From: Nitrospirota bacterium
GTDB lineage: Bacteria; Nitrospirota; Thermodesulfovibrionia; UBA6902; DSMQ01
DNA length: 64,000 nt
Reading direction: 5' to 3'
NCBI GenBank assembly: GCA_016212185.1
Contig: JACRGX010000069.1
Coordinates: forward strand, 673-64,672
Shown here: positions 2,117-64,000 of the stretch, piece after piece
How the letters are laid out: the number at the start of each line of letters is the position of its first letter
Position numbering within the stretch: position 1 is the first letter of the stretch
Position numbers and translations under genes: made by a program
Notes under the pieces: model-generated
The model's database searches: none
What the model was told of the DNA's origin: nothing
What the model saw: only the letters and a program-made list of their open reading frames with translations

Positions 2117-2165
2117 GGATAGGGGATATGTACCCACAGGAATTCCTGAAGAACTATTTTTATGT

Positions 2166-7712: not shown

Positions 7713-7723
7713 GAAGTATATTA

Positions 7724-44911: not shown

Positions 44912-47089
44912 TCACTGCCACATCATTGCCTCAAATCTTGAGCCCGGAACTTCCAGCGCAATGCATCCCCTACACGGCCATCTTTCAAGTTCGCTCCCGT
45001 CTTTCAAAACCGAGAGGATGAATGCCACCTCATCGCCCTCCTTTGCGCCGAGCAGTGCAAAAGGCAATGCTATTTCCATAATATCATTTATTGCTGCAGT
45101 TTCCAATTCCTGAAGTTGTTTCCACTCGTTTTGAACTCTATTGAAGAATACTGCCTTGATTTTATCGGTCACGATGACATCCAGTCTGGTTTGTACAGGT
45201 TTGAGGAAGTGGAAGGAAAAAGTTATTCCCTTTGAAATTTCAATTAAAGAGTTTGCCGCATCAGTCCTCAGATAGAGGTTGTTTAAATCAAACCCGTAAA
45301 AGATGTTGGAAATGAAGGCCTCGGCCCTGTGCATGGTCCCGCCTATTTTTTTTGTTTCCATGTAAGCTGAATGAAGCCACTCGTAATAACTTGTTATCTC
45401 TCCGTCTATCTTAGGCGTTATAAAACCCCTGATTGCAACAGTCGGTTTGACGCTTCTGTCTTCCCTCAGGATAGGGATGCTGAGTTTTGGAGGAATTTCC
45501 TTGCCGATAAGCTTGTAGACCTTCATTAAATTGGCTCTGAAAAGCTCATCAAACTCCTCCTGAGTCTCTGTTACATGCTCATCGCCGTACCACCAGCACC
45601 AGTCGCTGCCCTCTGCAATGTATATAGCCTGCCAGGCCTCTTTCAGGTCAGCCTCCGGATGCAATTGCTGGTGCGCAGCAAGGGACTCTCTGGCTTCATA
45701 AAGCGCATCCCATGCAAGATTATCCTCTTCGTGCCCGATCCAGATGGCAAAATTGCTGTAAATCCAGGATCCTGAAAAAAGGCTGTTTATTTGTGTGTGA
45801 GGCGGGTGTTCCCTTAAATACTCTGACACGGTTACAGTCTTAATCCCGTCTGCCCTGCTTAAACTTTCATAAAGACAGAAAAGAAAATCCCTGCCGTCAT
45901 TTCTGTAATATTCCCAGGCGTTTTCCCCGTCAAGTATTACTGAGACAAGAAAAGGCCTGTCTTTTGGCAGGGAATTTTTTATTTTGTACAGCCTGTCAAT
46001 AAAGTTATCTGCCGCCTTTCTTGCATCCCACCCTGAATAAACAAAACCGATAAGGTCTGACAGTGTGTGGTCCCTGAAGATTATTGATAAGCCGTCTCCT
46101 ACAGTGTAAGGCTTATAAAGTTTCTGAGGTTCCTTTACCATGCCTGAAATATCCCTTAGATGAATTCCGAGGGATGCGGCAAGGATTCCTTCGTCGGTTG
46201 CAATCCATTTGATCCCTTCGTTTTTTATTGTCTTGAGGATATCCGGGCTGACCGAGCCTTCTGACGGCCACAGGCCTTCAGGCTTAAATCCAAAAATCTT
46301 TTCAAAATACTCAACTGCCATTTTGACCTGCGCTGCCGCGTCCTCCGGATGCGAAAAGACAAACTGAGGAAGTTTAATGTCAGGCATGGCCACCTTGGCG
46401 GAATTTGTATTATAAAGAAGAGGCAGTATCGGATGATAAAAGGGGGATGTTGATATTTCAATCTGCCCTTTGCCGTGCATTCTTTTGTATTCCGGGATTA
46501 TGAGTTTCAACATGTCAACCTGCATTTTTAGGAGAAGTTCTTTTTCTTCTTCGGTGAAGTTTCTGCCTTTACCGGCAAGTTCTTTCAGGAACGGCTGCTT
46601 CTCCATGAATATGGGGTCAAACCAGCAGAGGTTAAAGAGCACCTGAAGGTCCAGGAAATCCTGTGTTGAAAAATACCTCATGACTTTTTTAAATTCATCC
46701 TTTGAGATTGTTCTACCTCTTTTAGAAAGCAGTTCGTAATACCGCGGCAGGGGGGCTATCATGTTTTCCCAGTTAGCGAAGAAGAAATCAGAGAGCATAG
46801 TGGTCCTTTGCGACTCTGTAAGGGCCTCTGCAGGCACCTTGCTTATTTCAAGGAAATTGTCTGAAGCGCCGCCCTCCGTATAATCTAAAATCTGTTCTAT
46901 CAGCGACGGAACCAGGTTGAATGTCTGGTGTACGGCGGGAAAGTCCTCCAGGATGGCGGCCATGTCATAATAATCTTTTATGCCGTGCAGTCTTACCCAC
47001 GGCAGGCGGTAAACCCCTGTGAACGGGTTTTTGTAATAAGGCTGGTGCATATGCCAGAGAAAGGAAACATAAAGAGGGCTACTGCTCAT
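44912..47089 (-). CDS. Glycoside hydrolase family 57 alpha-glucan enzyme with C-terminal DUF1925/1926-type domains
   Basis: LWHMHQPYYKNP N-terminus, GQIEISTSPFYHPILP and WPSEGSVS motifs typical of GH57. Confidence 0.85.
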   Translation of the reverse strand: MSSSPLYVSFLWHMHQPYYKNPFTGVYRLPWVRLHGIKDYYDMAAILEDFPAVHQTFNLVPSLIEQILDYTEGGASDNFLEISKVPAEALTESQRTTMLSDFFFANWENMIAPLPRYYELLSKRGRTISKDEFKKVMRYFSTQDFLDLQVLFNLCWFDPIFMEKQPFLKELAGKGRNFTEEEKELLLKMQVDMLKLIIPEYKRMHGKGQIEISTSPFYHPILPLLYNTNSAKVAMPDIKLPQFVFSHPEDAAAQVKMAVEYFEKIFGFKPEGLWPSEGSVSPDILKTIKNEGIKWIATDEGILAASLGIHLRDISGMVKEPQKLYKPYTVGDGLSIIFRDHTLSDLIGFVYSGWDARKAADNFIDRLYKIKNSLPKDRPFLVSVILDGENAWEYYRNDGRDFLFCLYESLSRADGIKTVTVSEYLREHPPHTQINSLFSGSWIYSNFAIWIGHEEDNLAWDALYEARESLAAHQQLHPEADLKEAWQAIYIAEGSDWCWWYGDEHVTETQEEFDELFRANLMKVYKLIGKEIPPKLSIPILREDRSVKPTVAIRGFITPKIDGEITSYYEWLHSAYMETKKIGGTMHRAEAFISNIFYGFDLNNLYLRTDAANSLIEISKGITFSFHFLKPVQTRLDVIVTDKIKAVFFNRVQNEWKQLQELETAAINDIMEIALPFALLGAKEGDEVAFILSVLKDGSELERWPCRGCIALEVPGSRFEAMMWQ

Positions 47090-51654: not shown

Positions 51655-52608
51655 ATGCCATTTAAAATCTCTACAAGGCTTTTCATCAGGTTCTTCTTTA
51701 GTTTTTCCGTATTATTTTTTTTAATATTCTCCGGCTGTGTGCGTCAGGAGACTCCTAAAAAAGCAAGCCTTCTTAAGAGGGCGGTTGAGATCTCCGCAGA
51801 TGTTAACGACATTGAGAGAAACACCCTGAAGTTCGGGTTTGACCTCAGGCTGGACCCCAAAGAAGACGTAAGGATTTACAGCCCGTTTCTTGAATACCTT
51901 CAAAATGCCACAGGAAAGCGTTTCAGCATAAAATTTACTGAAAAATATGAAGATACGGTTGATAATCTCGGCAAAGGCATTACACACTTTGCAGCCATAG
52001 GCCCGCTTAATTATGTAGCCGGCAGGGAAAAATACGGAAACGGGATTAAGTATCTTGTGAGCGGAGTTAATAACGAGGGCGACCCGAGATACCAGGCGGT
52101 TATCTTTACAAGACCCGGAGCCGGTATTCACAGCATAAAAGATCTAAAAGGCAAGCCGTTTGCTTTTGGACCAAGGATGTCAACGCAGGGACACCTTATA
52201 CCGAGAAAGATGCTGGAAGATGAAGGCATAACCGTTAGGGATATGAGTTCTTTTATTCATACGGATTCACATATGAGCACGGTCAGGGTTGTATTAAACG
52301 GCGAGTACGAAGCAGGGGGAATTCAGGATGTGCTTGCCAGGCGGCTTGAGAGGGAAGGAAAGATCAGGATTTTAAAAATTTCCGAACCCTATCCAAGCAG
52401 TATTATTGCATATAACAGCGCTTTGAATGCTGAGACGGTTAAAGCCGTCAGGTCTGCGCTCTTGGTCTTAGAGCCGGAGGGGAGACATAAAGACAAGCTT
52501 ATTGACTGGAATCAGACAGAAATGCCGCTCGGTTTTATCAGCATAAATGAATCGGAATTTTACAAGATAGCGGTTCTTGCAAGAAGGTACGGCTTGCTGA
52601 CGAAATGA
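51655..52608 (+). CDS. PhnD-like (phosphonate-type) periplasmic binding lipoprotein, AioX-like by context
   Basis: Lipobox FSGC. PBP type 2 fold sequence (LKFGF..., GKPFAFGPRMSTQGHLIPR). ATGA overlap with the kinase gene. Confidence 0.6.
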   Translation: MPFKISTRLFIRFFFSFSVLFFLIFSGCVRQETPKKASLLKRAVEISADVNDIERNTLKFGFDLRLDPKEDVRIYSPFLEYLQNATGKRFSIKFTEKYEDTVDNLGKGITHFAAIGPLNYVAGREKYGNGIKYLVSGVNNEGDPRYQAVIFTRPGAGIHSIKDLKGKPFAFGPRMSTQGHLIPRKMLEDEGITVRDMSSFIHTDSHMSTVRVVLNGEYEAGGIQDVLARRLEREGKIRILKISEPYPSSIIAYNSALNAETVKAVRSALLVLEPEGRHKDKLIDWNQTEMPLGFISINESEFYKIAVLARRYGLLTK

Positions 52609-53999
52609 AATTAAGAACGAAAATAATTATTTTAACAACAGCATCGGTTTTGATGGTCGGATTCCTTATCACACTTTCTATAAGGGGCGTCATCATCAAT
52701 GCCTTCAGGGAAGAACTTGAAAAAAAGGCAAGGTCTGTTGCAGGCAATCTCTCGGAAAGAATCGCAAACTATATTCCGTTGAATGACCAGTTCCAAACAA
52801 CGCAGGCGCTGAATGAGGTCCTGAGCAAGGAAAATGATCTGGAATATATATTTGTCACAGACGCCGACGGCCGGTTGTTTGCACATACGTTTAAAGACGG
52901 TTTTCCTCCTGAGATCCTTTCATGGAATCCGCTTAACAACAGGGCGGTTAATGTCCAGCTTCTTGAAACTGAGAAAGGCTACATACGCGATGTGGGCGTC
53001 AGTGTTATTAATAGCACAAAGTCAGAGCTTCATATCGGCATCAGGGAGGACAGTTTAAAATCCACACTTGCAAAAACGCGGGAAATAACTGTTCCGATTA
53101 TAATGTTTGTGATTTTCTTAGCCGTAATAGCCTCAATCTTTATGAGCCGTTTGATTACACAGCCGCTGAACAGGTTTGTGGAATTTACAAAAGGGCTCGG
53201 CAGGGGAGAATTTGACAAGAAACTGGAGGTTCAGTCCAGTGATGAAATTGGATACCTTTCGTACAGCTTTAACAGGCTGTCGCTGGAACTGATGACGGCA
53301 AGGAAAAAAATGGAAGAGGCATACACATACACGCACCTGCTTCAGGCAGAGAAGCTTTCTTCCATCGGGCAGATTTCAGCCGGCCTTGCGCATGAGCTTA
53401 AAAATCCCATTACCACTCTTAAGATGCTTTTTCAGGCGTTCAAGGAACAGCCCGACATGACAAAAGAGGATGCCGAAGTGATACACAGTGAAATAGAAAA
53501 AATAGACAATATCCTCACAAGATTTCTCGGATTTGTAAAACAGAAGGATATGCATACATCTGAGATTGATATAAATGCAATGATTGAACATGTCCTGTCG
53601 CTTGCCACCTTTAATCTCAAAAGCAAAAATATTATAGTGCATAAGGACATTGTGGAAAATCTTCCTGCGATAAAGGCAGACCGGGCGCTCATTGAACAGG
53701 TTTTTTTAAACCTTGTTATTAATGCCATTGAGGCAATGCCTGATGGAGGCGAGATAAGAATTTCAGGCAAGTCAGAAGGTAATTTTGTTGAGATAATGGT
53801 TTGGGACAAAGGCACGGGCATACCGGCAAATATAAAGTCAAAGGTCTTTGACCCGTTTTTTACAACAAAGGCAGGCGGCACCGGGCTCGGGCTTTCAATA
53901 GCTTATAATATAATCAAAGAGCACGGAGGCAAGTTGTTTTTTAACAGCCAAGAAGGGGCCGGGACGGTATTTACGGTAAAACTGCCGAAAGCGGGATGA
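52605..53999 (+). CDS. Sensor histidine kinase (periplasmic sensor, HAMP, HisKA, HATPase_c), AioS-like by context
   Basis: Two TM helices flanking a loop of about 150 aa, H-box SAGLAHELKNP, N-box NLVINAIEA and G-boxes DKGTGI and GTGLGLS. Confidence 0.8.
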   Translation: MKLRTKIIILTTASVLMVGFLITLSIRGVIINAFREELEKKARSVAGNLSERIANYIPLNDQFQTTQALNEVLSKENDLEYIFVTDADGRLFAHTFKDGFPPEILSWNPLNNRAVNVQLLETEKGYIRDVGVSVINSTKSELHIGIREDSLKSTLAKTREITVPIIMFVIFLAVIASIFMSRLITQPLNRFVEFTKGLGRGEFDKKLEVQSSDEIGYLSYSFNRLSLELMTARKKMEEAYTYTHLLQAEKLSSIGQISAGLAHELKNPITTLKMLFQAFKEQPDMTKEDAEVIHSEIEKIDNILTRFLGFVKQKDMHTSEIDINAMIEHVLSLATFNLKSKNIIVHKDIVENLPAIKADRALIEQVFLNLVINAIEAMPDGGEIRISGKSEGNFVEIMVWDKGTGIPANIKSKVFDPFFTTKAGGTGLGLSIAYNIIKEHGGKLFFNSQEGAGTVFTVKLPKAG

Positions 54000-54018: not shown

Positions 54019-54255
54019 TTATAGTTCATCGCCGGGGATTGGTCTACGGCTTGGAACCTTAGCTAATATTCTCCTGAAATCTTCTTTCTTTGCTCTTTTT
54101 GCCCTTGCCTTCAAATAGTCTTCCGTTAACAAAGCAGAAATTTTCTCTGCCACTGCCGATGAAATAAATTGGTTAATAGACACCTTTTCTTTTTTTGCAA
54201 TTTCCCTGATATGACGATGAATTGATTCCGGCAATCTCAAACTCAAAGCGCTCAT
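54019..54255 (-). CDS. Ribbon-helix-helix (CopG/Arc-like) antitoxin
   Basis: LSLRLPESIHRHIREIAKKEKVSINQFISSAVAEKI. 4-bp overlap with the upstream PIN gene. Confidence 0.7.
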   Translation of the reverse strand: MSALSLRLPESIHRHIREIAKKEKVSINQFISSAVAEKISALLTEDYLKARAKRAKKEDFRRILAKVPSRRPIPGDEL

Positions 54256-54677
54256 AATATTTCCTCCATTAATTCTTTAGGTGTTATTGATTTTACGCCA
54301 AAACCCTCTGCCCCTCTGAAATCTTTCGTATTGTGAGTCACAATAAGCTTAGTCCCTGAAGCAATGGCTAATTCCAATATATGATCATCTTTAGGGTCAG
54401 ACAGACGAGGGCGCCACAGGAAATATATCTTTTGATGTTCGCTTACCAGACAAAAATAATTTAATATCTTCTCTGTATCGTGGTTTGATAAACCTAACGC
54501 CATCTGATTCCTTTTGAGAACGTCTTCATATTCAAACAGCAAAGTTGTAGAAATAATTATTTTAAGCTTTCCGTTTTCTATCGCCTGTAATACCCTAAAA
54601 GAAGCGCCCTTTGATGAATAAAGTCCTGAGTAAAGCACATTCGTATCAAGAACTATCCGCGCTTTTTTATCGGGCAT
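54252..54677 (-). CDS. PIN-domain toxin
   Basis: IVLDTNVLYS (first acidic residue), internal EYEDV and C-terminal DDHILELA...THNTKDF. Confidence 0.8.
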   Translation of the reverse strand: MPDKKARIVLDTNVLYSGLYSSKGASFRVLQAIENGKLKIIISTTLLFEYEDVLKRNQMALGLSNHDTEKILNYFCLVSEHQKIYFLWRPRLSDPKDDHILELAIASGTKLIVTHNTKDFRGAEGFGVKSITPKELMEEIL

Positions 54678-54895
54678 ATTATAATACTATATGTGGTATC
54701 ACTACATTGTCAAGAGGTAATTTTTTGCGATTAGACTAATGTCCAGAACAGAAGTTGAAAAACTTGATATGTCAAGAATTAAGTGTGGTGTTCCATAGTG
54801 GATGAGTAAAATGGTGTGGATAATGCGGCGCTGAGCGATGCCCCGAAGGGGCATTCGTCTCCAGGCTAATGATTATGATTTGATTTTGTGATTTT

Positions 54896-55176
54896 GGGGT
54901 CAGGTCTTGTTTCTTGCATTAGCTGCTTTTTAGCACTCTACTTACTACAGAATAATGAATCCCAACGCAATTCGCAACGTCTTTCTGCGTATAACCATAT
55001 TTCTCTATTGCTTCTTTTGCTATCTTATTCCGTTTTGTTTTGTCTTTTATTATACTTTCATCAAATAACATGTCAAGCTTTGGCCTGTCTGCATATCTCT
55101 GGCTTTTAGGGATTTCTTTTTTATCCCGATACCCTTTATATTAATTTCTAAAATGCAAGAAACAAGACCTGACCCC
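54896..55176. mobile_element. 281-bp unit bounded by a perfect 25-bp inverted repeat and enclosing an HTH-gene remnant
   Basis: ggggtcaggtcttgtttcttgcatt (54896-54920) and its exact reverse complement (55152-55176). Minus-strand remnant ...RPKLDMLFDESIIKDKTKRNKIAKEAIEKYGYTQKDVANCVGIHYSVVSRVLKSS*. Confidence 0.6.
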
Positions 55177-55193
55177 AATCCTTGCTTTGATAA

Positions 55194-55601
55194 AAAAAAC
55201 TTCACGATGAGGATATTGCGGCGGGCTGCGCGGGCGTGTTTCTTGAGGATCAACTTGAAAGGAAATATCCGAGAGCCGCGAAGGATTTTGTCTGGCAATG
55301 GTTCTTTCCACAGCAATCATTGACCTTTGTGGCGGAAACGAAAGAGCGGCGGCGGTACCATTTGCATGAAAAGCATGTACAGGAAGCTCTTTACGAGGCT
55401 GTCAGGCGGGCGAAGCTCACCAAGCGTATTACGTCACACACCTTTCGCCGCAGTTTTGCCACGCACCTGCTTCAGGCTAATTACGACATACGGACAATCC
55501 AGACACTGCTCGGTCACAGTGATGTCAGAACTACTATGATTTACACTCACTGCGTGCCGAGCAAAACTGTAAAAGAGATGAAGAGCCCGCTGGATTTTTA
55601 A
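55194..55601 (+). pseudogene. 5'-truncated integron-type tyrosine integrase (IntI-like C-terminal half only)
   Basis: [20 protein letters not shown]...RRYHLHE (the IntI-specific extra segment), box [27 protein letters not shown] and the KSPLDF end. The in-frame stop at 55191 leaves no box I region. Confidence 0.75.
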
Positions 55602-55784: not shown

Positions 55785-57173
55785 ATGGAAAAGATACTTG
55801 TTGTTGATGACGAAAAAGGGGTTTGCTACTCGTTCAAGAGAATTCTTGGAAGTCACGGCTATGATGTCATCACGGCACTTAGCGGACATGAGGCGGTTGA
55901 AAAGGCGGGCAATGAGCACCCGAATCTTGTTATCATGGATGTGACAATGCCTGACATCGGCGGCCTTGAAACGCTTAAGAGGTTAAAGTCTCACAATCCG
56001 AACCTCACTGTAATAATCATGACGGCTTACAGCACTTCTGAAAAGGCAATAACGGCAATGAAGTACGGCGCATACGATTTTATCACTAAACCTGTTGACA
56101 ATGCCCAGTTAATTTCGCTTGTGGAAAAAGCTATTGCGGCGGGGAAAATGACCATTCCTGTAACATTTGAAGGAACTGCACAAGAAGGAGAAAGAATTAT
56201 TGGCAAAAGCCCTGGAATGCTTGCGATATACAAAAAAATAGGGCAGATAGCAGAAAGTGATGTTACAGTACTTTTAAGGGGAGAGACTGGCACAGGCAAG
56301 GAACTGATAGCACGAGCTATTTACCACGATAGTAAAAGGATCAATAAACCGTTTTTGCCGGTTAATTGCGCGGCTATTCCTGAGACCCTGCTTGAGAGCG
56401 AACTTTTCGGATATGAGAAGGGGGCTTTTACAGGCGCTGAAAACAGAAAGATTGGCAAGTTTGAGCAGTGCGACAGAGGCACGATGTTTCTTGATGAAAT
56501 CGGGGATATGCCGCTGTCACTTCAATCAAAATTGCTGAGAGTCCTTCAGGATGGATGTTTGCAACGGCTTGGTGGAAAAGAGCTGATTAAGACAGATGTC
56601 AGAATAATAGCCGCCACAAACAAGAATCTTGAATCATTGATAAATATAGGTAAGTTCAGAGACGACCTTTATTGGCGCTTGAATGTTGTAAGCATAAGCA
56701 TCCCGCCTCTTAGAGAAAGAAAAGAGGATATAGAAGAGCTTGTTCAGTATTTCATAAGGAAATACAACAAAGAACTCGGCAAGGACGTAAAAGGAATGTC
56801 ACCTGAACTGCTTAAGGAATTTAAAGGCTATTACTGGCATGGAAATGTAAGAGAGCTTCAAAGCATTGTACAGCACTGCATGCTTTTGTGTCAGAAGGAC
56901 GTAATTGCTTCTGAAGACTGCGAATGGCTGTCACAGATAAAACTCTCAGGTGAAAAGGCGGTTGATATTGAAAAGACGCTTGCTGATGTCGCAGGCGAAT
57001 TTCTGCTCAGAGGCGGGATGGACATATATAAAGAAGCGGTTGCAAACTTTGAGCATCTTATGGTTAAAAAGGCGCTTGAGCTGACAAAAAACAATCAGGT
57101 CATGGCGGCAAAGTTACTCGGCATATCAAGAAATACCCTCAGGGAAAAGCTCGGCAAACAGGAGTCGGATTAA
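55785..57173 (+). CDS. Sigma54-dependent response regulator (REC, AAA+, Fis HTH), AioR-like by context
   Basis: ILVVDDE...DV.MPD receiver, GETGTGKE Walker A, GAFTGA sigma54-contact loop and a C-terminal HTH AAKLLGISRNTL. Start trimmed to ATG 55785. Confidence 0.9.
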   Translation: MEKILVVDDEKGVCYSFKRILGSHGYDVITALSGHEAVEKAGNEHPNLVIMDVTMPDIGGLETLKRLKSHNPNLTVIIMTAYSTSEKAITAMKYGAYDFITKPVDNAQLISLVEKAIAAGKMTIPVTFEGTAQEGERIIGKSPGMLAIYKKIGQIAESDVTVLLRGETGTGKELIARAIYHDSKRINKPFLPVNCAAIPETLLESELFGYEKGAFTGAENRKIGKFEQCDRGTMFLDEIGDMPLSLQSKLLRVLQDGCLQRLGGKELIKTDVRIIAATNKNLESLINIGKFRDDLYWRLNVVSISIPPLRERKEDIEELVQYFIRKYNKELGKDVKGMSPELLKEFKGYYWHGNVRELQSIVQHCMLLCQKDVIASEDCEWLSQIKLSGEKAVDIEKTLADVAGEFLLRGGMDIYKEAVANFEHLMVKKALELTKNNQVMAAKLLGISRNTLREKLGKQESD

Positions 57174-57269
57174 ATGTTAACTGTTCAAAAAGTAATCACC
57201 CTGTTCAATTATTGACCAGCAGTTGACCATCTTCCCTTGAAATCCCCTTGAATTTTAAAGATATTTTAA

Positions 57270-57285
57270 CGGCATTAATCTTGCA
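57270..57285 (+). promoter_or_regulatory. Sigma54 (-24/-12) promoter
   Basis: cGGCATtaatcTTGCA with canonical GG-N10-GC spacing, 64 nt upstream of ATG 57349. Confidence 0.6.
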
Positions 57286-57348
57286 TTTAAAAAATACAGA
57301 CAAGATATTTCTTGTAAGATTTCAAAGTAAGGAAAGGAGATTCAAGGC

Positions 57349-58221
57349 ATGAAGAAGCTAAGTTTAGCAGTATTAGCAGTGCTTTTGACGCTGTGTTTTT
57401 TATCCGGCCTTGCAATGTCGGCGGATAAATCAATCCTTGATGTTGTAAAGGAAAAGGGGGTAGTCCGCATAGGGCACGGCAATACAACTCCGCCCATGAA
57501 TTACCTTGATGACAAGGGCAACTGGACCGGTTTTGACGTTGACTTAGGAGAGGAGCTTGCAAAGAGACTTGGCGTGAAACTTGAGCGTGTATTGGTTGAT
57601 AACAAGACAAGGATTGCATTTCTGGCAAACGGCACAATAGATATTTCTCTGGCAAACATCAGCCAGACCAGGAGCCGTGAGGAGCAGATGGATTATGCAG
57701 AGCCTCCTTATTTCTGGACAGGCAAGATATTTTATGCAAAGAAGGGCAAATTCAAGGCGATAAAAAACCTCGGCGGAAAAAAGATAGGCGTGGACCAGGG
57801 GTCAAACGCATTCATCGCAGCGCCCCAGGAGATTGCAAAATATTCAAAACAGGCTACGGTAATGTCTTCATTCCAGAACAGCGCAGAGGGCTTTATGGCA
57901 TTGAAGCAGGGCAAGATTGATGCATATTCTCAGGATGCGCAGATAATGGCTGCTGTTGCAGGCAGTTTAGGCGGTGAGTATGAGGCAGTCGGAGGGGCAA
58001 TTTACAGCCCGGGGCTTTACGGCATCGGAGTTCCGCCGAATGAAAGCAAGTGGAGGGATAAGATAAGCTTTATCCTTCAGGATATGCTCAAAGACGGGAC
58101 ATATGAGCAGATTTACCAGAAGTGGTTTGGTCCGAAGGGGATAGCGCCGCTTTCAATAAATGCAAGGCCGCGCCTGCCAAAGGACACTTACGGCGACATG
58201 CTTTATGTCTGGCCGGATTGA
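57349..58221 (+). CDS. Periplasmic solute-binding protein, family 3 (amino-acid type), orphan
   Basis: Signal peptide, then VVRIGHGNTTPPMNYLDDKGNWTGFDVDL. No permease or ATPase gene adjacent. Confidence 0.8.
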   Translation: MKKLSLAVLAVLLTLCFLSGLAMSADKSILDVVKEKGVVRIGHGNTTPPMNYLDDKGNWTGFDVDLGEELAKRLGVKLERVLVDNKTRIAFLANGTIDISLANISQTRSREEQMDYAEPPYFWTGKIFYAKKGKFKAIKNLGGKKIGVDQGSNAFIAAPQEIAKYSKQATVMSSFQNSAEGFMALKQGKIDAYSQDAQIMAAVAGSLGGEYEAVGGAIYSPGLYGIGVPPNESKWRDKISFILQDMLKDGTYEQIYQKWFGPKGIAPLSINARPRLPKDTYGDMLYVWPD

Positions 58222-58243
58222 AATGTTTTTTATGATAGACTGA

Positions 58244-58291
58244 AAATCCTGTCCCCTATTTAATACTTTCATAGGGGACAGGATTTATTTT
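58244..58291 (+). terminator. Rho-independent terminator
   Basis: 16-bp stem aaatcctgtcccctat/ataggggacaggattt followed by a T-run. Confidence 0.7.
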
Positions 58292-58351
58292 AATTAGCAA
58301 TCTGATATACTGCCGCCCGGTAAATAAATATAATGGGAGAAATAAAGAGAG

Positions 58352-58573
58352 ATGTCCAAGTATAAACCGATTGACAGTACTGATTTAGCCGGCGATGCTC
58401 CTTTCACAAACAACATGACCGGTGGGCTGAAAGAACAATTCAAGAAAGAATTGCTGTCCGTATTTCAGAAGTTCGGTTATCCTCTGGAAGAAAAAGACCA
58501 TGAAGTAACATTCAGAACTACTTCCGGCAATATAGCATGGATTAATATTAAAAGAATAGAAATTATTAAATAA
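58352..58573 (+). CDS. Hypothetical 73-aa protein
   Basis: ORF with a gggagaaataaagagag purine-rich leader. No recognisable motif. Confidence 0.3.
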   Translation: MSKYKPIDSTDLAGDAPFTNNMTGGLKEQFKKELLSVFQKFGYPLEEKDHEVTFRTTSGNIAWINIKRIEIIK

Positions 58574-58631
58574 ACGAATAATTGACGGTTACTTTACCCC
58601 CGCAGGAAAAAATCTTCAGCGGGGTTATTAA

Positions 58632-58679
58632 AGCCCGGTTAATTGTCCCGAAGCTTCAGGACAATTAATCGGGCTTTTT
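58632..58679 (+). terminator. Rho-independent terminator built on a GTCCCGAAG-type hairpin
   Basis: agcccggttaattgtcccgaagcttcaggacaattaatcgggct followed by tttt. Confidence 0.7.
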
Positions 58680-58692
58680 ATTAGACGCCAAA

Positions 58693-59076
58693 ATGAAAAT
58701 TATAAAAGTAATTTTACTTAGTATTTTGTTTGTGTTGATTATCTTGATTGCTATGCGCACCGTTCAGGGAGAGATGAAAACTTCATTGAAAGAAGGAGAA
58801 AAAATATATGTGCAGTATTGCACACCCTGTCACGGTTTTAACGGGGACGGGAAAGGCTTTAATGCAAAAAATCTGGACCCCCGGCCTGCAAACCATACTG
58901 ACGGCGGATTTATGAAAAAAAGAATGGATAAGGAACTTTATGATGCAGTCAGCGGCGGAGGCAAGGCTGTCGGCAAATCCACCCTTATGCCGCCGTGGGG
59001 GAATACGTTTAATGAAACACAGATTAAGTCGCTCATTTCGTATTTGAGGAAGTTGTGCGGGTGTGAGGGGGAATAA
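58693..59076 (+). CDS. Membrane-anchored/secreted monohaem cytochrome c (class I)
   Basis: N-terminal hydrophobic segment, CTPCH haem site and a distal LMPPWG Met ligand region. Confidence 0.8.
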   Translation: MKIIKVILLSILFVLIILIAMRTVQGEMKTSLKEGEKIYVQYCTPCHGFNGDGKGFNAKNLDPRPANHTDGGFMKKRMDKELYDAVSGGGKAVGKSTLMPPWGNTFNETQIKSLISYLRKLCGCEGE

Positions 59077-59123
59077 AGATTGTAAGCGGTTCAAACAGTT
59101 CAAATAAATAAAGGAGGAACAAA

Positions 59124-59669
59124 ATGCTCAAAGAGAAGAAAGAAGCATCAGTAGCACAAGTCATGACACGCAGAAAAATCTTAAAAGCCGTTTGCTGCGC
59201 GGGGGCAGTTGCGGCAGTTTCATCTGTTGCATTAGATAAAGCAGGCGCCGCTTTATCAGGCAGAACTTATCCGCAGGTAAAAATTGCAAATATCAAAAAT
59301 CTTCCGTCGGGAAAGACAATAAAATTTGATTACCCGCTTACTGGAAGAAAAAACATCCTTGTAAATCTGGGATGCAGCGCTGAAGGCGGCGCCGGCGCTG
59401 ACAAGAGCATTGTTGCGTACAGCATGTTTTGCACTCATCTGGGGTGCGCTGTTGATCTGGACAAAGAAAGCGGGATGCTGGTTTGCGAATGCCATCAAAG
59501 CATTTATGATCCGAAACAGAGCGGTAAGGTGGTTGAAGGCCCCGCGCCGAATAACCTGCCGATGATTTTATTGGAGATTGATAAGAACGGGGACATTTAT
59601 GCGGCAGGAGTTGCCGGTCTTATTTATGGACTTAGAAATAATCTACTTGACGGAGAGGAGATAAAGTAA
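59124..59669 (+). CDS. aioB: Rieske [2Fe-2S] small subunit of an arsenite-oxidase-type enzyme (AioB-like), Tat signal
   Basis: TRRKILKAV twin-arginine leader. Rieske boxes CTHLGC and CECHQS. The C-terminal ...NLPMILLEIDKNGDIYAAGVAGLIYG resembles AioB as I recall it. Confidence 0.75.
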   Translation: MLKEKKEASVAQVMTRRKILKAVCCAGAVAAVSSVALDKAGAALSGRTYPQVKIANIKNLPSGKTIKFDYPLTGRKNILVNLGCSAEGGAGADKSIVAYSMFCTHLGCAVDLDKESGMLVCECHQSIYDPKQSGKVVEGPAPNNLPMILLEIDKNGDIYAAGVAGLIYGLRNNLLDGEEIK

Positions 59670-62021
59670 ATGGGCAATGAAAAGGAATTTTCAAGGAGAG
59701 ATTTATTAAAGGTTTCAGCAGCAGCGGCGGCAGGGGCATGTGTGATAAACGGAATGCCTGTGTTTGCGGCAGGTAAATTTTCAGAAGCAAAGGCGGTTGA
59801 ATTTGCAGAGCTTCCGCCCGCACACGCAGAGACTTATGATACTGCCTGCCGTTACTGTCATGTTATGTGCGGATACAAGGTTTATATCTGGCCCAAAGGC
59901 ACAGGGCTAAAACCGGACAAGGCTAAATTTTATCCTGTTGAGAAGATGCGGGGCGACTGGCCCAATCCTGTTTTCACGGTTGAAGCCAAAAAGAACGGTA
60001 AAGACGTATCAATAATGATAGTGCCGGATAACAAAGACGTGGCAAGCGGATCAAACTACTCAGTCCGCGGGGCGTTCAATGCCCAGAGTTTGTATTCCGA
60101 GAAACTTCCGACAAGGATCCGTCTCAAAAAACCAATGATTCGCAAAGGCGGCAAGACAAGTCCTCTTGCGGAGGTTTCATGGGATGAAGCGATTGGATTC
60201 TGCGCGGAGAACTTTAGAAAAATTATCAATCAATACGGTCCTGACGCAATCGGCGCAGTTTACGGAGACTGGGGTTATCTGCAGAATACGCATGTATTGC
60301 TGAAGTGGCTCTTCACAGGAATTAAGTCCAGCACCCTTGCCGGCAACGGGTATCTCTTCTGGGGCGATGAAAGCTGGGGGCTTGCCGATGTGGTGGGTGC
60401 GGGCACCAGGTCGTTTACGTCGGAAGATTTTATAAAAACTAAACTCATTTTTTGCGCCGGAAAAAATCTAAAGGATACGGGTTCATCATGGTATTATCAG
60501 GCGTTGTCAACGGGCGGCATGAACAAGGGTGATATCAAAATGATACTGGTAGACCCGAGAAGGATTCAGATGGCAGAAGACGCAGAAAAAAGCGGCGGTC
60601 TTTTCCTCCAGATTAATCCGGGCACTGATGCAATACTCGGCGCGTCTTTGATGCATGTGCTCGTCATGCACGATTTGTATGACAAAGAATTTGTCCAAAA
60701 GCACACAACTGGTTTTGATACGCTCAAGCAGACTGTATTGAACAGCAGATTCGCACCTGAAAATGCTGAAAAGATTACCGGTATTCCGGCCGCAAAGATT
60801 ATAGCAGCCGCTGAGATGCTCGCAAAGCATAAAGGGCAGACAATGGTGCTTTTTGAAAAAGGAATTATGCATCAGGTGACAGGATACGAAAACGAAGTCG
60901 CATACAGCGCTATGGGAATTATTCTCGGCAATGCCGGAAAACCAGGCGCGTGCACATCCAGAGCCGGCGGACATCCGAGAGGGACCTGGGCGGACCCGCC
61001 TGCCCCAAACGGCGCAAGTTCCATGAGGAGCATCTGTGAAAAAATTGATAAGGGAGAAATAAAGTCGCTCTGGGCGTACATCAGCAACATTTACATACAG
61101 CTTCCCAACCTGAGCAAATATAAGCCTCAGATTGATAAGATGTTTCTTGTCGTGAATGAGATTTATCCCACAGACACGACAGCGGCTGCAGATGTAGTCT
61201 TCCCTGCTGCCACATGGGGAGAATGGAACACCATACAGGCAAGCGAAGACAGGAGGCTTCATATTCAGCAGGGCTTTATGGAAGCCCCCGGCGATGCAAA
61301 GCCGGACTGGTGGATTGTTGCCCAACTGGCAAAGCGGATGGGTTTGAGCGGGTATGACTGGAAAAACGAACAGGAGATTTATGATGATGTAAGAGCGCAG
61401 ACAAAAGGTTCATTTACCAGTGACATCTCAGAAATTGAATGGAAAGACCTTATAAAGTCAGGCACTAACGGCATTCAGTTCCCTTACAAAAACCGCAGGA
61501 GCATATCGCGGCTTTATTCTCTTGAGACAGAAGAAGTGATGGGAAGGCGCTTTAAACATGACGACGGCAAGGCGCACCTTGAACCTGTAAAGGCGCTTGC
61601 TGATTTTGACCCGTACAATCATCCTTTGAGAGACAAGATTACAAATGAGTATCCGCTCTGGATGATTATGCACCGGGCAAACGAAATCTGGAACACCGGC
61701 TATAACTTTTACAATAACGGGCTTAATGTACCGTTGACCCCGAATCTTTACGAGAGACTGCCCGAGCAGACTGTAAGCATTAATCCCAAAGACGCAAGGG
61801 CAATAGGCGTGAAAAGCGGAGACTGGGTTGCGGTTAATTCCAGAAACGGAAGTATGAAGGCAGTGGCAAAGGTAAACGGGCTGACGGCCCCCGGGGTTGT
61901 GGATGTCATGTCGCTTTATCCAAAGACTGAGTCAACGCCGAACATGGTGACGAGCGAGAAGGCGGACCCGAAGCTTGCCGAGTGGGACAGGATGGTGCCG
62001 GTGAATATTGTGAAGGTTTAA
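59670..62021 (+). CDS. aioA: Molybdopterin (bis-MGD) large subunit of an arsenite-oxidase-type enzyme (AioA-like)
   Basis: N-terminal C-x2-C-x3-C (CRYCHVMCGY) with no fourth Cys, and SGSNYSVRGA at the position of the AioA Ser ligand region. MopB core (VDPRR...INPGTDA) and a C-terminal MGD-binding barrel. Immediately follows the Rieske subunit. Confidence 0.75.
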   Translation: MGNEKEFSRRDLLKVSAAAAAGACVINGMPVFAAGKFSEAKAVEFAELPPAHAETYDTACRYCHVMCGYKVYIWPKGTGLKPDKAKFYPVEKMRGDWPNPVFTVEAKKNGKDVSIMIVPDNKDVASGSNYSVRGAFNAQSLYSEKLPTRIRLKKPMIRKGGKTSPLAEVSWDEAIGFCAENFRKIINQYGPDAIGAVYGDWGYLQNTHVLLKWLFTGIKSSTLAGNGYLFWGDESWGLADVVGAGTRSFTSEDFIKTKLIFCAGKNLKDTGSSWYYQALSTGGMNKGDIKMILVDPRRIQMAEDAEKSGGLFLQINPGTDAILGASLMHVLVMHDLYDKEFVQKHTTGFDTLKQTVLNSRFAPENAEKITGIPAAKIIAAAEMLAKHKGQTMVLFEKGIMHQVTGYENEVAYSAMGIILGNAGKPGACTSRAGGHPRGTWADPPAPNGASSMRSICEKIDKGEIKSLWAYISNIYIQLPNLSKYKPQIDKMFLVVNEIYPTDTTAAADVVFPAATWGEWNTIQASEDRRLHIQQGFMEAPGDAKPDWWIVAQLAKRMGLSGYDWKNEQEIYDDVRAQTKGSFTSDISEIEWKDLIKSGTNGIQFPYKNRRSISRLYSLETEEVMGRRFKHDDGKAHLEPVKALADFDPYNHPLRDKITNEYPLWMIMHRANEIWNTGYNFYNNGLNVPLTPNLYERLPEQTVSINPKDARAIGVKSGDWVAVNSRNGSMKAVAKVNGLTAPGVVDVMSLYPKTESTPNMVTSEKADPKLAEWDRMVPVNIVKV

Positions 62022-62124
62022 AAAGGGACGAATAAAAAGGCACTGAGGCGCAAAGGCGCTGAGGCACAAAACTTTGTTCTCCTACTTTGTGCCTTGGATG
62101 CTTTGTTCCTTTGTGCCTGTTTTT

Positions 62125-62658
62125 ATGGGCGATATGACGGAACATTCACTTAACAGCAATGTCACCCGCCGCGGTTTTCTGAGAATAATCGGCTGGGGTT
62201 CTTTTTTTGTCACACTGGGGATATTAATCGGGGGGACTATGAGATTTTTATTCCCGCGCGTTCTTTTTGAACGTCCTTCAACATTTAAGGCTGGATTTCC
62301 TCACGAATTTGATAGAAAGGACAGGGCGGATGAAAACGGCGTTTTTGAGGTATATGAAAAGTGGAAAGATGAACATTCTGCATGTCTGGTGAGGGAAAAG
62401 AACCGCATATACGCCGTACATGTTAAATGCACTCATCTGGGATGCACGCCTAACTGGTTTGCAGATGACAGGATATTCAAGTGCCCGTGCCATGGCAGTC
62501 AGTTTCACAGCAACGGCGTAAATTTTGCAGGTCCGGCTCCGAGACCGCTGGACCGGTTTGGTATTTCAATTGCCGATGACGGCATGATTGTTGTAGATAA
62601 AAGCAGGGTATATACCTCTAAGGACTTTGATAAACGCGGAGCGTATCTTAATGTGTAA
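62125..62658 (+). CDS. Rieske iron-sulfur protein of a cytochrome bc/b6f-type complex
   Basis: TRRGFLRIIGW Tat-like anchor, CTHLGC...CPCHGSQF and GPAPRPLD. The start could be 62125 or 62134. The earlier ORF part is a repeat arm. Confidence 0.85.
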   Translation: MGDMTEHSLNSNVTRRGFLRIIGWGSFFVTLGILIGGTMRFLFPRVLFERPSTFKAGFPHEFDRKDRADENGVFEVYEKWKDEHSACLVREKNRIYAVHVKCTHLGCTPNWFADDRIFKCPCHGSQFHSNGVNFAGPAPRPLDRFGISIADDGMIVVDKSRVYTSKDFDKRGAYLNV

Positions 62659-62683
62659 TAGGCTCCTGATTTTTGATTAAAGC

Positions 62684-63439
62684 ATGATAGAGAAATTCTG
62701 GAACAAATTAACCGGCTCCCAGCTTTGCAAATCCATATTCCGCCACGGTTATGAAGATACAACAAGAAACCGGGCGCTTCAGGTAAGGTCTAACGTATTC
62801 CTTCATCTTCATCCTGTAAGTGTGCCTGAACATGCCTTTAAAATACGTTTCACATGGTGTATGGGCGGGATAACTTTTTTCCTGTTTTTAGTAGAGGCAT
62901 TCACCGGCGTATTTCTGATGTTCTACTATCATCCTATTCCTGAGTTTGCCTATCATGATATGAAGTATCTTGAATTTGACATCCCTTTCGGGATTATCCT
63001 CAGAAACATCCACAGGTGGGCGGCGCATCTGATGGTGTTTACAATCATTCTGCACATGCTGAGGGTTTTTCTTACAGGCTCATATAAACCTCCGAGGGAA
63101 TTTAACTGGGTTGTCGGCGTGGTCTTAATAGTTTTGACTTTTTTGCTGAGCTTTACCGGCTATCTGCTTCCGTGGGACCAACTGTCTTACTGGGCTATTA
63201 CGGTAGCTACCAACATGATGGGAGCAGCACCGTTTATCGGGCATGAAGGCCCGTTTTCAGTTGTTAATAAATATAATGATATCCGTTTTGTTGTGTTAGG
63301 CAGCACAGAGATAGGGACAAACGCTCTTCTGAGGTTTTATGTGATGCATATTATAGTATTGCCTGCGGCTGCAATCATTTTTATGGCAGTTCACTTCTGG
63401 AGAATCAGGAAAGACGGGGGCATATCAGGACCTTTATGA
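62684..63439 (+). CDS. Cytochrome b, N-terminal (b6-like, four-helix) subunit
   Basis: Haem His pairs in NIHRWAAHLMVFTIILHMLRVF and FYVMHIIVLPAAAIIFMAVHFW. 251 aa. Confidence 0.9.
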   Translation: MIEKFWNKLTGSQLCKSIFRHGYEDTTRNRALQVRSNVFLHLHPVSVPEHAFKIRFTWCMGGITFFLFLVEAFTGVFLMFYYHPIPEFAYHDMKYLEFDIPFGIILRNIHRWAAHLMVFTIILHMLRVFLTGSYKPPREFNWVVGVVLIVLTFLLSFTGYLLPWDQLSYWAITVATNMMGAAPFIGHEGPFSVVNKYNDIRFVVLGSTEIGTNALLRFYVMHIIVLPAAAIIFMAVHFWRIRKDGGISGPL

Positions 63440-63486
63440 GAGGCACGAAGGCGCAGAGAAGAAAAATTTAGTGCCAGAATAATATT

Positions 63487-64000
63487 ATGGAACGCTCTAA
63501 AAGTAAAAAACATTTCGTCTGGCCGGACCTGGCATTTAAGGAATTTTTAACGATTATTGCTTTAACAATTATATTGATAATATGGGGTCTGCTTATGAAT
63601 GCGCCTTTAAGGGAGATGGCTGCGCCGGAAAGGTCTGAAAATCCGTCCAAGGCGCCGTGGTATTTTGCAGGGCTGCAGGAATTGCTGGTCTATTTTGACC
63701 CATGGATAGCCGGGGTCATGATTCCTGTCATTATTGCAGCCGGTTTGATAATTATCCCCTATATAGATACTAATCCCAACGGCAGAGGGAGCTACACATT
63801 CTCCCTCAGGCGGTTTGCTGTTATAAATTTTCTTTTCGGTTTTCTGCTCTGGTGGGGCTTGATATTTATAGGATATTTTTTAAGGGGTCCGAACTGGCAG
63901 TTATATCTCCCATGGGAATCGTGGGGGACTGTTAAAGAGACTGAGAATTATCTCTGGAGCCTGAGCCCTGCTATTGGTTTAGTGTGTATAGCAGTTTATT
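63487..64000 (+). CDS. Cytochrome b C-terminal domain / subunit IV-like protein (3' end beyond the window)
   Basis: My own translation from ATG 63487: MERSKSKKHFVWPDLAFKEFL...NPSKAPWYFAGLQELLVYF (PEWYF-type motif) followed by three hydrophobic helices. Open to the window end. Confidence 0.8.
   Translation, partial: MERSKSKKHFVWPDLAFKEFLTIIALTIILIIWGLLMNAPLREMAAPERSENPSKAPWYFAGLQELLVYFDPWIAGVMIPVIIAAGLIIIPYIDTNPNGRGSYTFSLRRFAVINFLFGFLLWWGLIFIGYFLRGPNWQLYLPWESWGTVKETENYLWSLSPAIGLVCIAVY

Follow-up and report, generated by a model that had tools for sequence, protein, structure and literature searches.

What does a Rieske-partnered molybdenum enzyme do when its genes are followed directly by those of a cytochrome bc-type complex, and in which direction would electrons pass between the two? 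The question is raised by a cluster of six genes at the end of a 64,000-nt stretch of a Nitrospirota contig (JACRGX010000069.1), to which we refer as the window. Listing the open reading frames (ORFs) of the window and translating them gives the following genes at 58693-64000, all on the + strand:

58693-59076, + strand: monohaem class I cytochrome c of 127 amino acids (aa), with the haem motif CTPCH and an N-terminal signal or anchor (Pfam Cytochrome_CBB3, 6e-11, and Cytochrom_C)
59124-59669, + strand: Rieske-1, an AioB/IdrB-like [2Fe-2S] small subunit of 181 aa, with the twin-arginine translocation (Tat) motif TRRKILK and the boxes CTHLGC and CECHQSIY (Pfam Rieske)
59670-62021, + strand: MopB, a bis-molybdopterin guanine dinucleotide (bis-MGD) catalytic subunit of 783 aa, with the Tat motif FSRRDLLK (Pfam TAT_signal, Rieske_3, Molybdopterin and Molydop_binding)
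62134-62658 (ORF from 62074), + strand: Rieske-2, a bc/b6f-type Rieske protein of 174 aa, with the Tat motif TRRGFLRI and the boxes CTHLGC and CPCHGSQF
62684-63439, + strand: b6-like four-helix cytochrome b (Pfam Cytochrome_B, 3e-44), with four haem-ligand His and Cys59 at the haem-ci position
63487-64000, + strand, running past the end of the window: subunit IV-like protein with the Qo motif APWY within KAPWYF

These are the six genes, with every motif quoted for them, that had been listed in the original prediction, which was made from the letters of the window. The start of Rieske-2 is probably at 62134, which yields the same 174 aa as in its relatives, including the 96%-identical locus L095. 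From cytochrome c through subunit IV the intergenic gaps measure 47, 0, about 110, 25 and 47 nt; the Rieske-1 stop and the MopB start abut at 59669/59670, and a promoter and terminator scan called no terminator-like site in the gap between MopB and Rieske-2. The scan was bounded by stem and loop limits and missed a hairpin at 58598-58684, which was hence folded separately. The six-gene arrangement is far beyond chance, because domain E-values reach down to 1e-90 and the same order is found on 15 independent contigs. The unit itself is cut at both ends of the extent first proposed for it: the six genes are correct, but an octahaem cytochrome c follows them in relatives, and regulatory genes from 51655 onwards belong to them as well.

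By its phylogenetic placement, MopB is a third lineage in the superfamily of Rieske-partnered [3Fe-4S] enzymes that holds arsenite oxidase (Aio) and iodate reductase (Idr), and it is neither AioA nor IdrA. Among 5.8 billion proteins searched for homologues, the relatives fall into four tiers. The nearest is a tight clade, labelled TDV, at 65-96% identity, whose hosts are metagenome-assembled genomes of Thermodesulfovibrionia/Nitrospirota identified in a genome scan and sampled at vents, in deep mines, and in groundwater and crustal fluids. A second clade, labelled C45, is 40-47% identical to MopB and about 765 aa long; its hosts include Aquificaceae, Acidobacteria and Pseudomonadota. IdrA-like proteins, about 880 aa long and at about 30% identity, make up the third tier, and canonical AioA is only 26-28% identical to MopB. 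A neighbour-joining tree (97 sequences, 100 bootstraps, Fdh/Nas outgroups) recovers the TDV, C45, IdrA-like and AioA sequences each as monophyletic at 100%. TDV and C45 form a clade at 100%, sister to a clade of IdrA-like and AioA sequences, also at 100%, and the four clades jointly split from the outgroups at 100%.

Family models and structures place the enzyme consistently with this. On the NCBIfam equivalog model for AioA (TIGR02693), MopB scores 304.3 bits against a cutoff of 359.05, with a good match confined to residues 48-485, while true AioA proteins reach 1291-1302 bits, IdrA-like proteins 439-477, C45 proteins 296-313 and another TDV member 315. A profile of TDV and C45 sequences finds AioA structures as its top match in the PDB (311 bits; FdhF, 269 bits). 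The AlphaFold2 model of MopB (pLDDT 85.5) has an AioA-like fold, since ranks 1-11 of a Foldseek search are all AioA chains, with TM scores of 0.80-0.82 and E-values down to 5e-51. The prediction that the large subunit falls in the Aio/Idr clade is thus half right: MopB lies within the wider Rieske/[3Fe-4S] superfamily, and AioA is what both its profile and its fold match best in the PDB, but it stands outside the crown group formed by the AioA and IdrA clades and below the TIGR02693 cutoff. Nor do its neighbours make it an IdrA. The cytochrome c peroxidase genes idrP1 and idrP2 are the marker that defines iodate reductase clusters (PMC8692401); 33 of 57 IdrA-like loci have a dihaem cytochrome c peroxidase gene beside the enzyme, and none of the 24 TDV loci, among them the window, has a homologue. 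A twin-arginine motif of its own is present on the large subunit in 26 of 26 TDV and 41 of 46 C45 sequences, and in none of seven AioA sequences. In databases such proteins are named 'molybdopterin-dependent oxidoreductase' (NCBI) or, for several homologues, 'arsenite oxidase large subunit' (JGI).

The cofactor motif of MopB is that of the superfamily and its substrate pocket is not. The [3Fe-4S] motif reads C60-x2-C63-x3-C67, and its three Cys are conserved across all four clades in the alignment; Pfam Rieske_3 ('3Fe-4S') matches the protein at 5e-15. At the position of a fourth Cys stands Ser131 (NYSVRG), which aligns with the Ser of AioA and is Cys in six of six Fdh/Nas outgroups. The absence of a canonical fourth Cys, read at first from the motif, therefore survives alignment. 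For the pocket, we mapped by sequence alignment the second-sphere residues Asp169, His199, Arg201, Glu207, Lys413, Arg447, His451 and Glu453 of the Aio of strain NT-26 (PMC10448176); HMMER and MAFFT disagree by one column in the active-site loop. Five of the eight are retained in the window and in the main group of TDV. Asp169, Glu207 (Glu234 in the window), Arg447 (Arg431) and His451 (His435) are kept throughout TDV and in C45, and C45 and 19 of 26 TDV sequences also retain Lys413, which is Met in a TDV paralog subgroup.

The other positions differ. His199 is Asn226 in the window and Asn in 26 of 26 TDV sequences and in C45; Asn200 is Gly in TDV and C45; Arg201 is Tyr228 in the window and Tyr in TDV, Trp or Tyr in C45; and Ala203 is Phe in the window and TDV. 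In the Mo-ligand column, subject to the one-column disagreement between the two aligners, Phe230 is found in 26 of 26 TDV sequences, Ala in AioA and Cys in the outgroups, and apart from Asp233 and Glu234 the loop holds no Cys, Ser or Asp. Glu453, which lines the funnel, is replaced by Arg in the 19 of 26 TDV sequences of the main group and in 12 of 12 IdrA-like sequences, and mostly by Gly in C45. The loop thus reads Asn-Gly-Tyr-Leu-Phe in the window, Asn-Gly-[Tyr/Trp]..Phe across TDV and C45, His-Asn-Arg-Pro-Ala in AioA and His-Asp-Lys-Pro-Ala in IdrA-like enzymes. Of the His/Glu/Arg/His arsenite pocket that the original prediction proposed to check, Glu, Arg and one His remain, but the His at 199 is lost, as is Arg201.

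The small subunit is AioB-like, as had been proposed. Rieske-1 scores 132.7 bits on the NCBIfam model arsenite_ox_S (cutoff 95.65), its best PDB match is AioB (114.7 bits), and it has a Tat signal, both disulfide Cys and the box II sequence CECHQSIY. We did not take the arsenite_ox_S match as evidence for arsenite, since all four clades pass the model, IdrB-like and C45 small subunits included; the residues of box II are likewise uninformative as a predictor of direction, being mixed across clades. A cytochrome c gene precedes Rieske-1 in 17 TDV loci, counting the window, and its product probably carries electrons between the bc module and the molybdenum enzyme.

The remaining genes encode a split b6-type bc module, complete with Rieske boxes, His pairs, haem-ci Cys and a separate subunit IV bearing a Qo motif. 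Rieske-2 matches b6f/bc Rieske models (NCBIfam PetC-type), and its closest solved relative is Kustd1480 of Kuenenia stuttgartiensis (9rk3; 120 bits), with which it has the box CPCHGS-x-F in common. Kustd1480 comes from a menaquinone organism and has a measured midpoint potential of +335 mV, and quinol oxidation has been proposed for the complex to which it belongs (PMC12954380). In cytochrome b, the haem ligands His110/124 and His222/237 have b6-type spacing, and Cys59 lies in FTWCMGGIT, a b6 haem-ci context. The protein reaches 280 bits on the NCBIfam model for Geobacter ExtP (cutoff 290), and subunit IV matches the ExtQ model. The Qo motif APWY is present in subunit IV of the window and of every TDV locus checked; the 'APWY clade' described by Kao and Hunte comprises complexes of delta-Proteobacteria, Chloroflexi, Nitrospirales and Planctomycetes, with no member characterised (PMC4122944). 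Directly downstream, 14 TDV loci carry a gene for an octahaem cytochrome c, with eight CxxCH motifs counted in the five that were checked, a multihaem cytochrome being one of the genes that the original prediction proposed to look for beyond the end of the window. These proteins are membrane-anchored, 660-770 aa long, and have four haems set close together at the N-terminus plus four domains of class I; on the ExtS model they score 100.3 bits against a cutoff of 100. Exact look-ups of the window's MopB in a contig index, and of a 38-mer taken at the window end in metagenome contigs, gave no match; from these relatives, and in particular from the 96%-identical L095, we infer that an octahaem gene lies just past the end of the window.

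The link between the molybdenum enzyme and the bc module is conserved. Comparing the window proteins by BLAST with the ORFs of all fetched loci, and using precomputed annotations, we found the bc genes after the Rieske-1/MopB pair on 15 of 18 informative TDV contigs, which upholds the adjacency on which the original prediction was built. The order cytochrome c, Rieske-1, MopB, Rieske-2, cytochrome b, subunit IV, octahaem cytochrome c is seen in L001, L002 (identical to L004), L005, L006, L009, L013 and L014, and again in L083, L084, L085, L086, L088, L089, L092 and L095; in L007, L008 and L012 the pair stands with no bc genes downstream. The link persists despite an insertion sequence (DDE_Tnp_1) after MopB in L083 (5747-6895) and despite tandem duplicates of the pair in L014 (5831-8724) and L088 (151-3052), which belong to a paralog group at 65-70% identity with Met in place of Lys413. 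The cluster is evolutionarily restless, with duplicates, an insertion sequence, a pseudogene fragment and a transporter insertion: an N-terminal MopB fragment in L001 (8341-8547) is the remnant of a duplication of the pair, and in L088 a gene for a MOT1-type molybdate transporter (7505-8650) sits between Rieske-2 and cytochrome b.

Comparable wiring occurs with IdrA-like enzymes. Seven of their loci (L042, L062, L063, L066, L067, L072 and L082) encode an APWY Rieske/cytochrome b module with a multihaem cytochrome: directly behind idrP1, idrP2, idrB, idrA and cytochrome c come genes for a GltD-like FAD/FeS protein, for a Rieske protein and for a fused APWY cytochrome b, and then one for a tetra- or pentahaem cytochrome c. 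The GltD-like protein is an NAD(P) oxidoreductase, and the layout (7122-17936 in L062) is that of the 'bifurcating' bc complexes of Kuenenia, for which IdrAB would be a possible high-potential outlet; we found no description of this combination in the literature. Neither this wiring nor the sensor genes described below had been noticed at the first reading of the sequence.

Upstream of the catalytic genes, the window contains the following features:

51655-52608 (ORF from 51580; likely ATG at 51655), + strand: X, a periplasmic oxyanion-binding lipoprotein of the PhnD/PtxB/ArrX/AioX family (Pfam Phosphonate-bd, 175 bits)
52605-53999, + strand: S, a membrane sensor histidine kinase (HAMP, HisKA, HATPase_c), overlapping X by 4 nt
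54019-55601, mixed strands: 1.6-kb insertion splitting S from R, with a minus-strand toxin/antitoxin-like pair and a recombinase fragment
55785-57173 (ORF from 55686), + strand: R, a sigma-54-dependent NtrC-type response regulator (Pfam Response_reg, Sigma54_activat and HTH_8; NCBIfam ntrC, 490 bits)
57349-58221, + strand: periplasmic solute-binding protein, family 3 (Pfam SBP_bac_3, 1e-34)
58352-58573, + strand: conserved ORF of 73 aa with no Pfam or NCBIfam match
58598-58684, + strand: double hairpin, a short stem followed by a 19-bp perfect stem and a U-run, terminator-like

A PhnD-family binding protein, a histidine kinase and a sigma-54 regulator near molybdenum-enzyme genes is the layout of the AioXSR and ArrXSR three-component sensors (PMC5908839), and the X, S and R genes of the window probably belong to the same unit as the catalytic genes. 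In two relatives from one assembly (L092 and L093; GCA_964347155.1) the whole set is contiguous on one strand: X, S, R, the family 3 solute-binding protein, a Porin_O_P porin, a radical SAM protein, the small ORF, a 449-aa protein, cytochrome c, Rieske-1 and MopB, Rieske-2, cytochrome b, subunit IV and the octahaem cytochrome. There the cluster is headed by an X homologue (P0166, 60% identity), S holds the same position as in the window, and the content of the insertion is missing between S and R. R, whose likely start at 55785 gives the 462 aa found in relatives, holds its position in L086, L092 and L095 and is present as remnants in L083; the gene for the solute-binding protein is also found upstream in L002, L005, L086, L092 and L095. 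Reading motifs by eye, we found in the insertion a minus-strand pair (54019-54677) of 141 aa, with the PIN-like motif IVLDTNVL, and 78 aa, and on the + strand (55236-55601) a C-terminal fragment of a tyrosine recombinase (HxxR...LLGH...Y). It looks like the scar of a mobile element.

Against PDB proteins, X scores 73.6 bits with PtxB, 57 with ArrX and 26 with AioX. Mature X has no Cys at all, hence it lacks the Cys106 of AioX, a residue that AioX, ArxX and ArrX are reported to share and PhnD to lack (PMC5908839). Homologues of the small ORF (69-80 aa) are found in ten other TDV loci, eleven with the window. In ten TDV loci (L008, 203-1156; L014, 3133-4089; L005, L009, L015, L083, L086, L087, L089 and L092) a gene for an ArsS-family radical SAM protein (TIGR04167, 373-395 bits in L008 and L014) lies directly before the small ORF; the radical SAM gene is missing from the window and from L095, its closest relative, both of which retain the small ORF, and L005 additionally encodes a TIGR04283 'arsenosugar' glycosyltransferase. 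This pair of genes could reflect an arsenic-island context, or a radical SAM enzyme with a small-protein partner.

The remainder of the window had been described as anaerobic in character. We found the genes behind that description, RnfG/D/C, an MqnA-type gene of the futalosine route to menaquinone and a glycoside hydrolase family 57 (GH57) enzyme, which together with a 1656-aa PilY1/Ig-domain protein account for the features at 239-3476, 7836-8747, 38578-43548 and 44912-47089; all of these, like the rest, we read as housekeeping. The further genes include HslUV, UvrC, enolase and CTP synthase, and the scan of the window revealed no terminal oxidase or reductase outside the cluster.

Taken as a unit, the cluster is best explained, in our tentative view, as an inducible module for a menaquinol:oxyanion reductase, with a route from quinol through the bc complex, cytochrome c and the Rieske protein to Mo; we give this reading a little less than an even chance. 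X, S and R would switch the cluster on in response to a periplasmic oxyanion; its genes would be co-expressed, and their products would be physically coupled. The catalytic unit would be a Tat-exported heterodimer of the bis-MGD/[3Fe-4S] subunit MopB and the AioB-like Rieske-1, wired to the menaquinone pool by cytochrome c and by a dedicated b6-type Rieske/cytochrome b complex with the octahaem cytochrome c. Electrons would pass from menaquinol to Rieske-2 and cytochrome b in a proton-motive Q-cycle, and from there through the octahaem cytochrome, cytochrome c, Rieske-1 and the [3Fe-4S] cluster to Mo and a high-potential oxyanion. Such a design would resemble the iodate-reductase route, but hard-wired in one operon. 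An oxyanion of Se, I, As, Sb, N or Cl could be the substrate, and the caution about the substrate expressed in the original prediction was justified.

Seven lines of evidence favour the reductive direction. The same bc wiring occurs in the seven loci with peroxidase-flanked IdrA-like enzymes; Rieske-2 resembles the +335 mV protein Kustd1480, whose complex is thought to oxidise menaquinol; and on ExtP, ExtQ and ExtS, Geobacter models that NCBIfam names for a selenite/tellurite reduction operon, the bc and octahaem proteins reach the cutoffs or come close to them. Arg replaces Glu453 of AioA, as it does in IdrA-like enzymes. X has no Cys and is closer to PtxB and ArrX, binders of tetrahedral oxyanions, and the cluster of L092 includes an anion-type porin (Porin_O_P). 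Finally, the window encodes an MqnA-type menaquinone gene. Periplasmic high-potential molybdenum reductases that lack a quinol dehydrogenase of their own (Idr, Ser and Clr) take their electrons through bc complexes and cytochrome c.

A number of observations weigh against this interpretation. The enzymes of the sister clade C45, at about 44% identity and with the same Asn-Gly-[Tyr/Trp]..Phe loop, are found on plasmids of three Sb(III)/As(III)-oxidising isolates, beside aio-style genes, which points to an oxidase ancestry. In relatives of the window, the ArsS-family and arsenosugar glycosyltransferase neighbours hint at arsenic, whose arsenate couple lies at too low a potential to fit a high-potential chain. 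The tree is a neighbour-joining tree with few outgroups, and the Rieske potentials are read here from motifs. APWY complexes have been proposed, ahead of any experiment, to run in reverse, with the p-cresol methylhydroxylase cluster of Geobacter metallireducens as the cited case (PMC4122944). We do not regard this proposal as decisive, because it is a hypothesis without experiments and because APWY complexes also adjoin IdrA-like, presumably reductive, enzymes.

Regulation is a further point on the same side. The second hairpin (58630-58684), with its 19-bp perfect stem and U-run, folds at -45.9 kcal/mol (z -5.35) and ends 9 nt before the start of the cytochrome c gene. A scan for the sigma-54 promoter TGGCAC-N5-TTGC gave 47 matches against 62 expected and hence no promoter above chance; one site at 57270-57284, after R, was not taken as evidence. 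Because of this terminator-like hairpin and the lack of a sigma-54 promoter above chance, the regulatory link from X, S and R to the catalytic genes is carried entirely by synteny. The hairpin may act as a terminator, as an attenuator or as a site of processing. In L001 a related element stands ahead of the cluster (about 8215-8320), although the upstream genes differ there. An Rfam scan of 57100-59200 returned nothing near gathering scores, so that we rejected a known riboswitch such as that for the molybdenum cofactor.

Of the other explanations, the one that survives best is that the enzyme is a metalloid oxidase, which we consider doubtful. Rieske-1 and MopB would oxidise As(III), Sb(III) or a similar species, and electrons would enter a reversed APWY bc complex through cytochrome c and the octahaem cytochrome, driving the reduction of menaquinone at the expense of the proton-motive force; the menaquinol would then feed anaerobic respiration, or CO2 fixation by way of reverse electron transport. 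C45 lends this its main support. Three C45 loci (L016, L023 and L094; CP159958, CP159951 and NZ_CP022371) are plasmid-borne, on a pair of almost identical 72-kb plasmids from Hydrogenophaga sp. ANAO-22 and Mesorhizobium sp. ANAO-SY3R2 and on a conjugative plasmid of Bosea sp. AS-1, and all three hosts are reported Sb(III) oxidisers (PMC11812324; PMC8453088). The C45 enzyme is thus a candidate for the antimonite oxidase of these strains. Its neighbours are transposases and the aio-style accessory genes for cytochrome c, a nitroreductase and moaA or moeA; in L090 an arsR-arsC-acr3 group (20255-22301) lies 8 kb from the enzyme, with MerT/MerR also in the vicinity. The neighbourhoods of L021 and L022 show an SBF/Acr3-like transporter and otherwise no clear functional hint.

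TDV and C45 also share the active-site loop and keep Asp169, Glu207, Arg447 and His451, with Lys413 kept in C45 and in most of TDV; to this the oxidase explanation can add the ArsS-family neighbours in ten TDV loci, the likeness of the X, S and R layout to AioXSR, and the reverse operation that Kao and Hunte proposed for APWY complexes (PMC4122944). On the other side, bc genes are present in none of 13 C45 loci, and IdrA-like enzymes, presumably reductive, have the same bc wiring as the window. To our knowledge, no canonical aio cluster carries bc genes either. X does not have the arsenite-binding Cys106. The potential of menaquinone is about -70 mV, and if Rieske-2 resembles Kustd1480 (+335 mV), moving electrons from such a high-potential chain to menaquinone would be costly, though not impossible.

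It is distinctly improbable, in our judgement, that the chemistry is of another kind, on a sulfur oxyanion, nitrite or nitrate, or a metal species, or that the enzyme is reversible, with the bc complex as a coupler for both directions. An active-site loop unlike those of AioA and IdrA would fit such a role, as would a lineage outside every described family with hosts as diverse as Aquificaceae, Acidobacteria, Pseudomonadota and Thermodesulfovibrionia. One C45 locus even has other wiring: in L090 (8341-17648) cytochrome c, Rieske and MopB genes are followed by a NarI-like cytochrome b, a multihaem cytochrome c, a 993-aa ActB-like Mo/FeS protein and another cytochrome c, and not by bc genes. However, five of the eight second-sphere residues that bind the oxo group in AioA are kept in the window and in the main TDV group, the sensor is of an oxyanion-binding class, and no positive evidence favours any particular alternative substrate.

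That the cluster is an ordinary AioAB which happens to adjoin a housekeeping bc complex, as the JGI labels, the passing of the AioB model by Rieske-1 and the three loci with no bc genes downstream (L007, L008 and L012) might suggest, is hardly credible, since MopB scores 304 bits against a cutoff of 359 and about 1300 for true AioA, lies outside the AioA clade at a bootstrap of 100, has lost His199 and Arg201 and carries its own Tat signal (26 of 26 TDV, none of seven AioA), since the AioB model does not discriminate and is passed by IdrB-like and C45 proteins too, and since the bc module accompanies the pair on 15 of 18 contigs despite differing flanks, insertion sequences and tandem duplications of the pair.

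Pushed further, the menaquinol:oxyanion reductase reading and its oxidase counterpart lead to a proposal that we advance as speculative and rather unlikely: that subsurface Thermodesulfovibrionia possess a new type of respiration, in which the third-lineage enzyme and the APWY complex form an operon-encoded supercomplex that respires an oxyanion which this enzyme family is not known to handle, such as selenate, antimonate or arsenate, or that runs a reversed Q-cycle driven by As(III) or Sb(III). If true, this would be the first functional assignment for bc complexes of the APWY/Kuenenia type, and it would implicate the plasmid-borne C45 enzyme in antimonite oxidation by Sb-oxidising isolates, whose antimonite oxidase is missing so far. 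Deep groundwater and the fluids of mines and vents are rich in the hosts, and a new electron donor or acceptor there would alter models of subsurface energy flow. Annotation models overlook the third lineage, and metagenomic inventories of As, Sb and I cycling consequently miss or miscount it. A two-subunit molybdenum enzyme that is hard-wired to its complex and has a dedicated sensor also offers a tractable route to the direction in which APWY/Kuenenia-type bc complexes work, which is debated, no complex of either type being known to have been characterised; the identity of the oxyanion bound by X and turned over by Rieske-1 and MopB would reveal it.

How does the cluster compare with systems already described? 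In full-text literature, with subscription journals mostly outside coverage, we found no description of the TDV clade or of its operon. The closest catalytic counterpart is AioAB (Alcaligenes faecalis, 1G8K; Pseudorhizobium NT-26, 4AAY), likewise a periplasmic heterodimer of a Rieske subunit with a Tat signal and a bis-MGD subunit, with the C-x2-C-x3-C [3Fe-4S] motif, Ser at the fourth position, the same five pocket residues, a cytochrome c gene in the cluster and an XSR-type set of binding protein, kinase and sigma-54 regulator. It differs in belonging to a separate lineage at 26-28% identity, whose model (TIGR02693) the window enzyme fails, and at His199, Arg201, Ala203 and Glu453, which are Asn, Tyr, Phe and Arg here; the window large subunit has its own Tat signal and is about 40 residues shorter, X lacks Cys106, and bc and octahaem genes follow. 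Outside this superfamily, the haloarchaeal NarGH, encoded with NarB (Rieske) and NarC (cytochrome b), is likewise an outer-face MopB enzyme encoded with a quinone-linking Rieske/cytochrome b pair. It is, however, a Nar-type enzyme of another MopB lineage (type II dimethyl sulfoxide reductase (DMSOR), Asp-ligated), with a four-cluster FeS subunit and no Rieske protein on the enzyme.

IdrABP1P2 (Pseudomonas sp. SCT, Denitromonas sp. IR-12) shares the superfamily, the cofactor set and Arg at the position of AioA Glu453, and some IdrA-like loci, L042 and L062 among them, are linked to an APWY Rieske/cytochrome b module. In the model for iodate reductase, quinol supplies the electrons, which pass along a bc complex and cytochrome c (PMC8692401). 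The IdrA-like enzymes nevertheless form another clade at about 30% identity and about 880 aa, with a His-Asp-Lys-Pro-Ala loop, peroxidase genes in 33 of 57 loci against none of 24 in TDV, and bc modules with a fused cytochrome b and a GltD-like FAD/FeS subunit. The Sb oxidase NaoABC of Symbiobacteriaceae is an ABC-type DMSOR enzyme (PMC11521347), and we rejected it as a relative on account of its unrelated architecture.

For the bc module, the nearest counterparts are the complexes Kustd1480-1485 and Kuste4569-4574 of Kuenenia stuttgartiensis (PMC12954380), which also combine a b6-like cytochrome b, a subunit IV and a hexa- or octahaem cytochrome c in place of cytochrome f, and whose clusters can include a catalytic enzyme, as does Kuste4569-4574 with its HAO-like protein. 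Unlike them, the window cluster has no NAD(P) oxidoreductase subunit, its enzyme is a Mo/Rieske dimer and not a multihaem protein, and its host is a member of Nitrospirota and not an anammox planctomycete. ExtOPQS of Geobacter sulfurreducens resembles the module at the level of family models only (cytochrome b 280 bits against 290 for ExtP, a match of subunit IV to ExtQ, and the octahaem protein 100.3 against 100 for ExtS), and no molybdenum enzyme is named in that operon family. In Geobacter metallireducens, an APWY cytochrome b is clustered with a periplasmic redox enzyme, p-cresol methylhydroxylase, which sets a precedent for an enzyme-bc operon (PMC4122944); its partner is a flavocytochrome dehydrogenase, however, and the reverse direction is a proposal. 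The parts of the window cluster are therefore of known kinds: an Aio/Idr-type enzyme, a Rieske/cytochrome b complex of the Kuenenia/Geobacter type and an XSR-type sensor. What appears to be new is the unnamed lineage of the enzyme, the combination of its own Tat signal with an altered pocket, and the fusion, at the level of the operon, with an APWY bc complex and an octahaem cytochrome.

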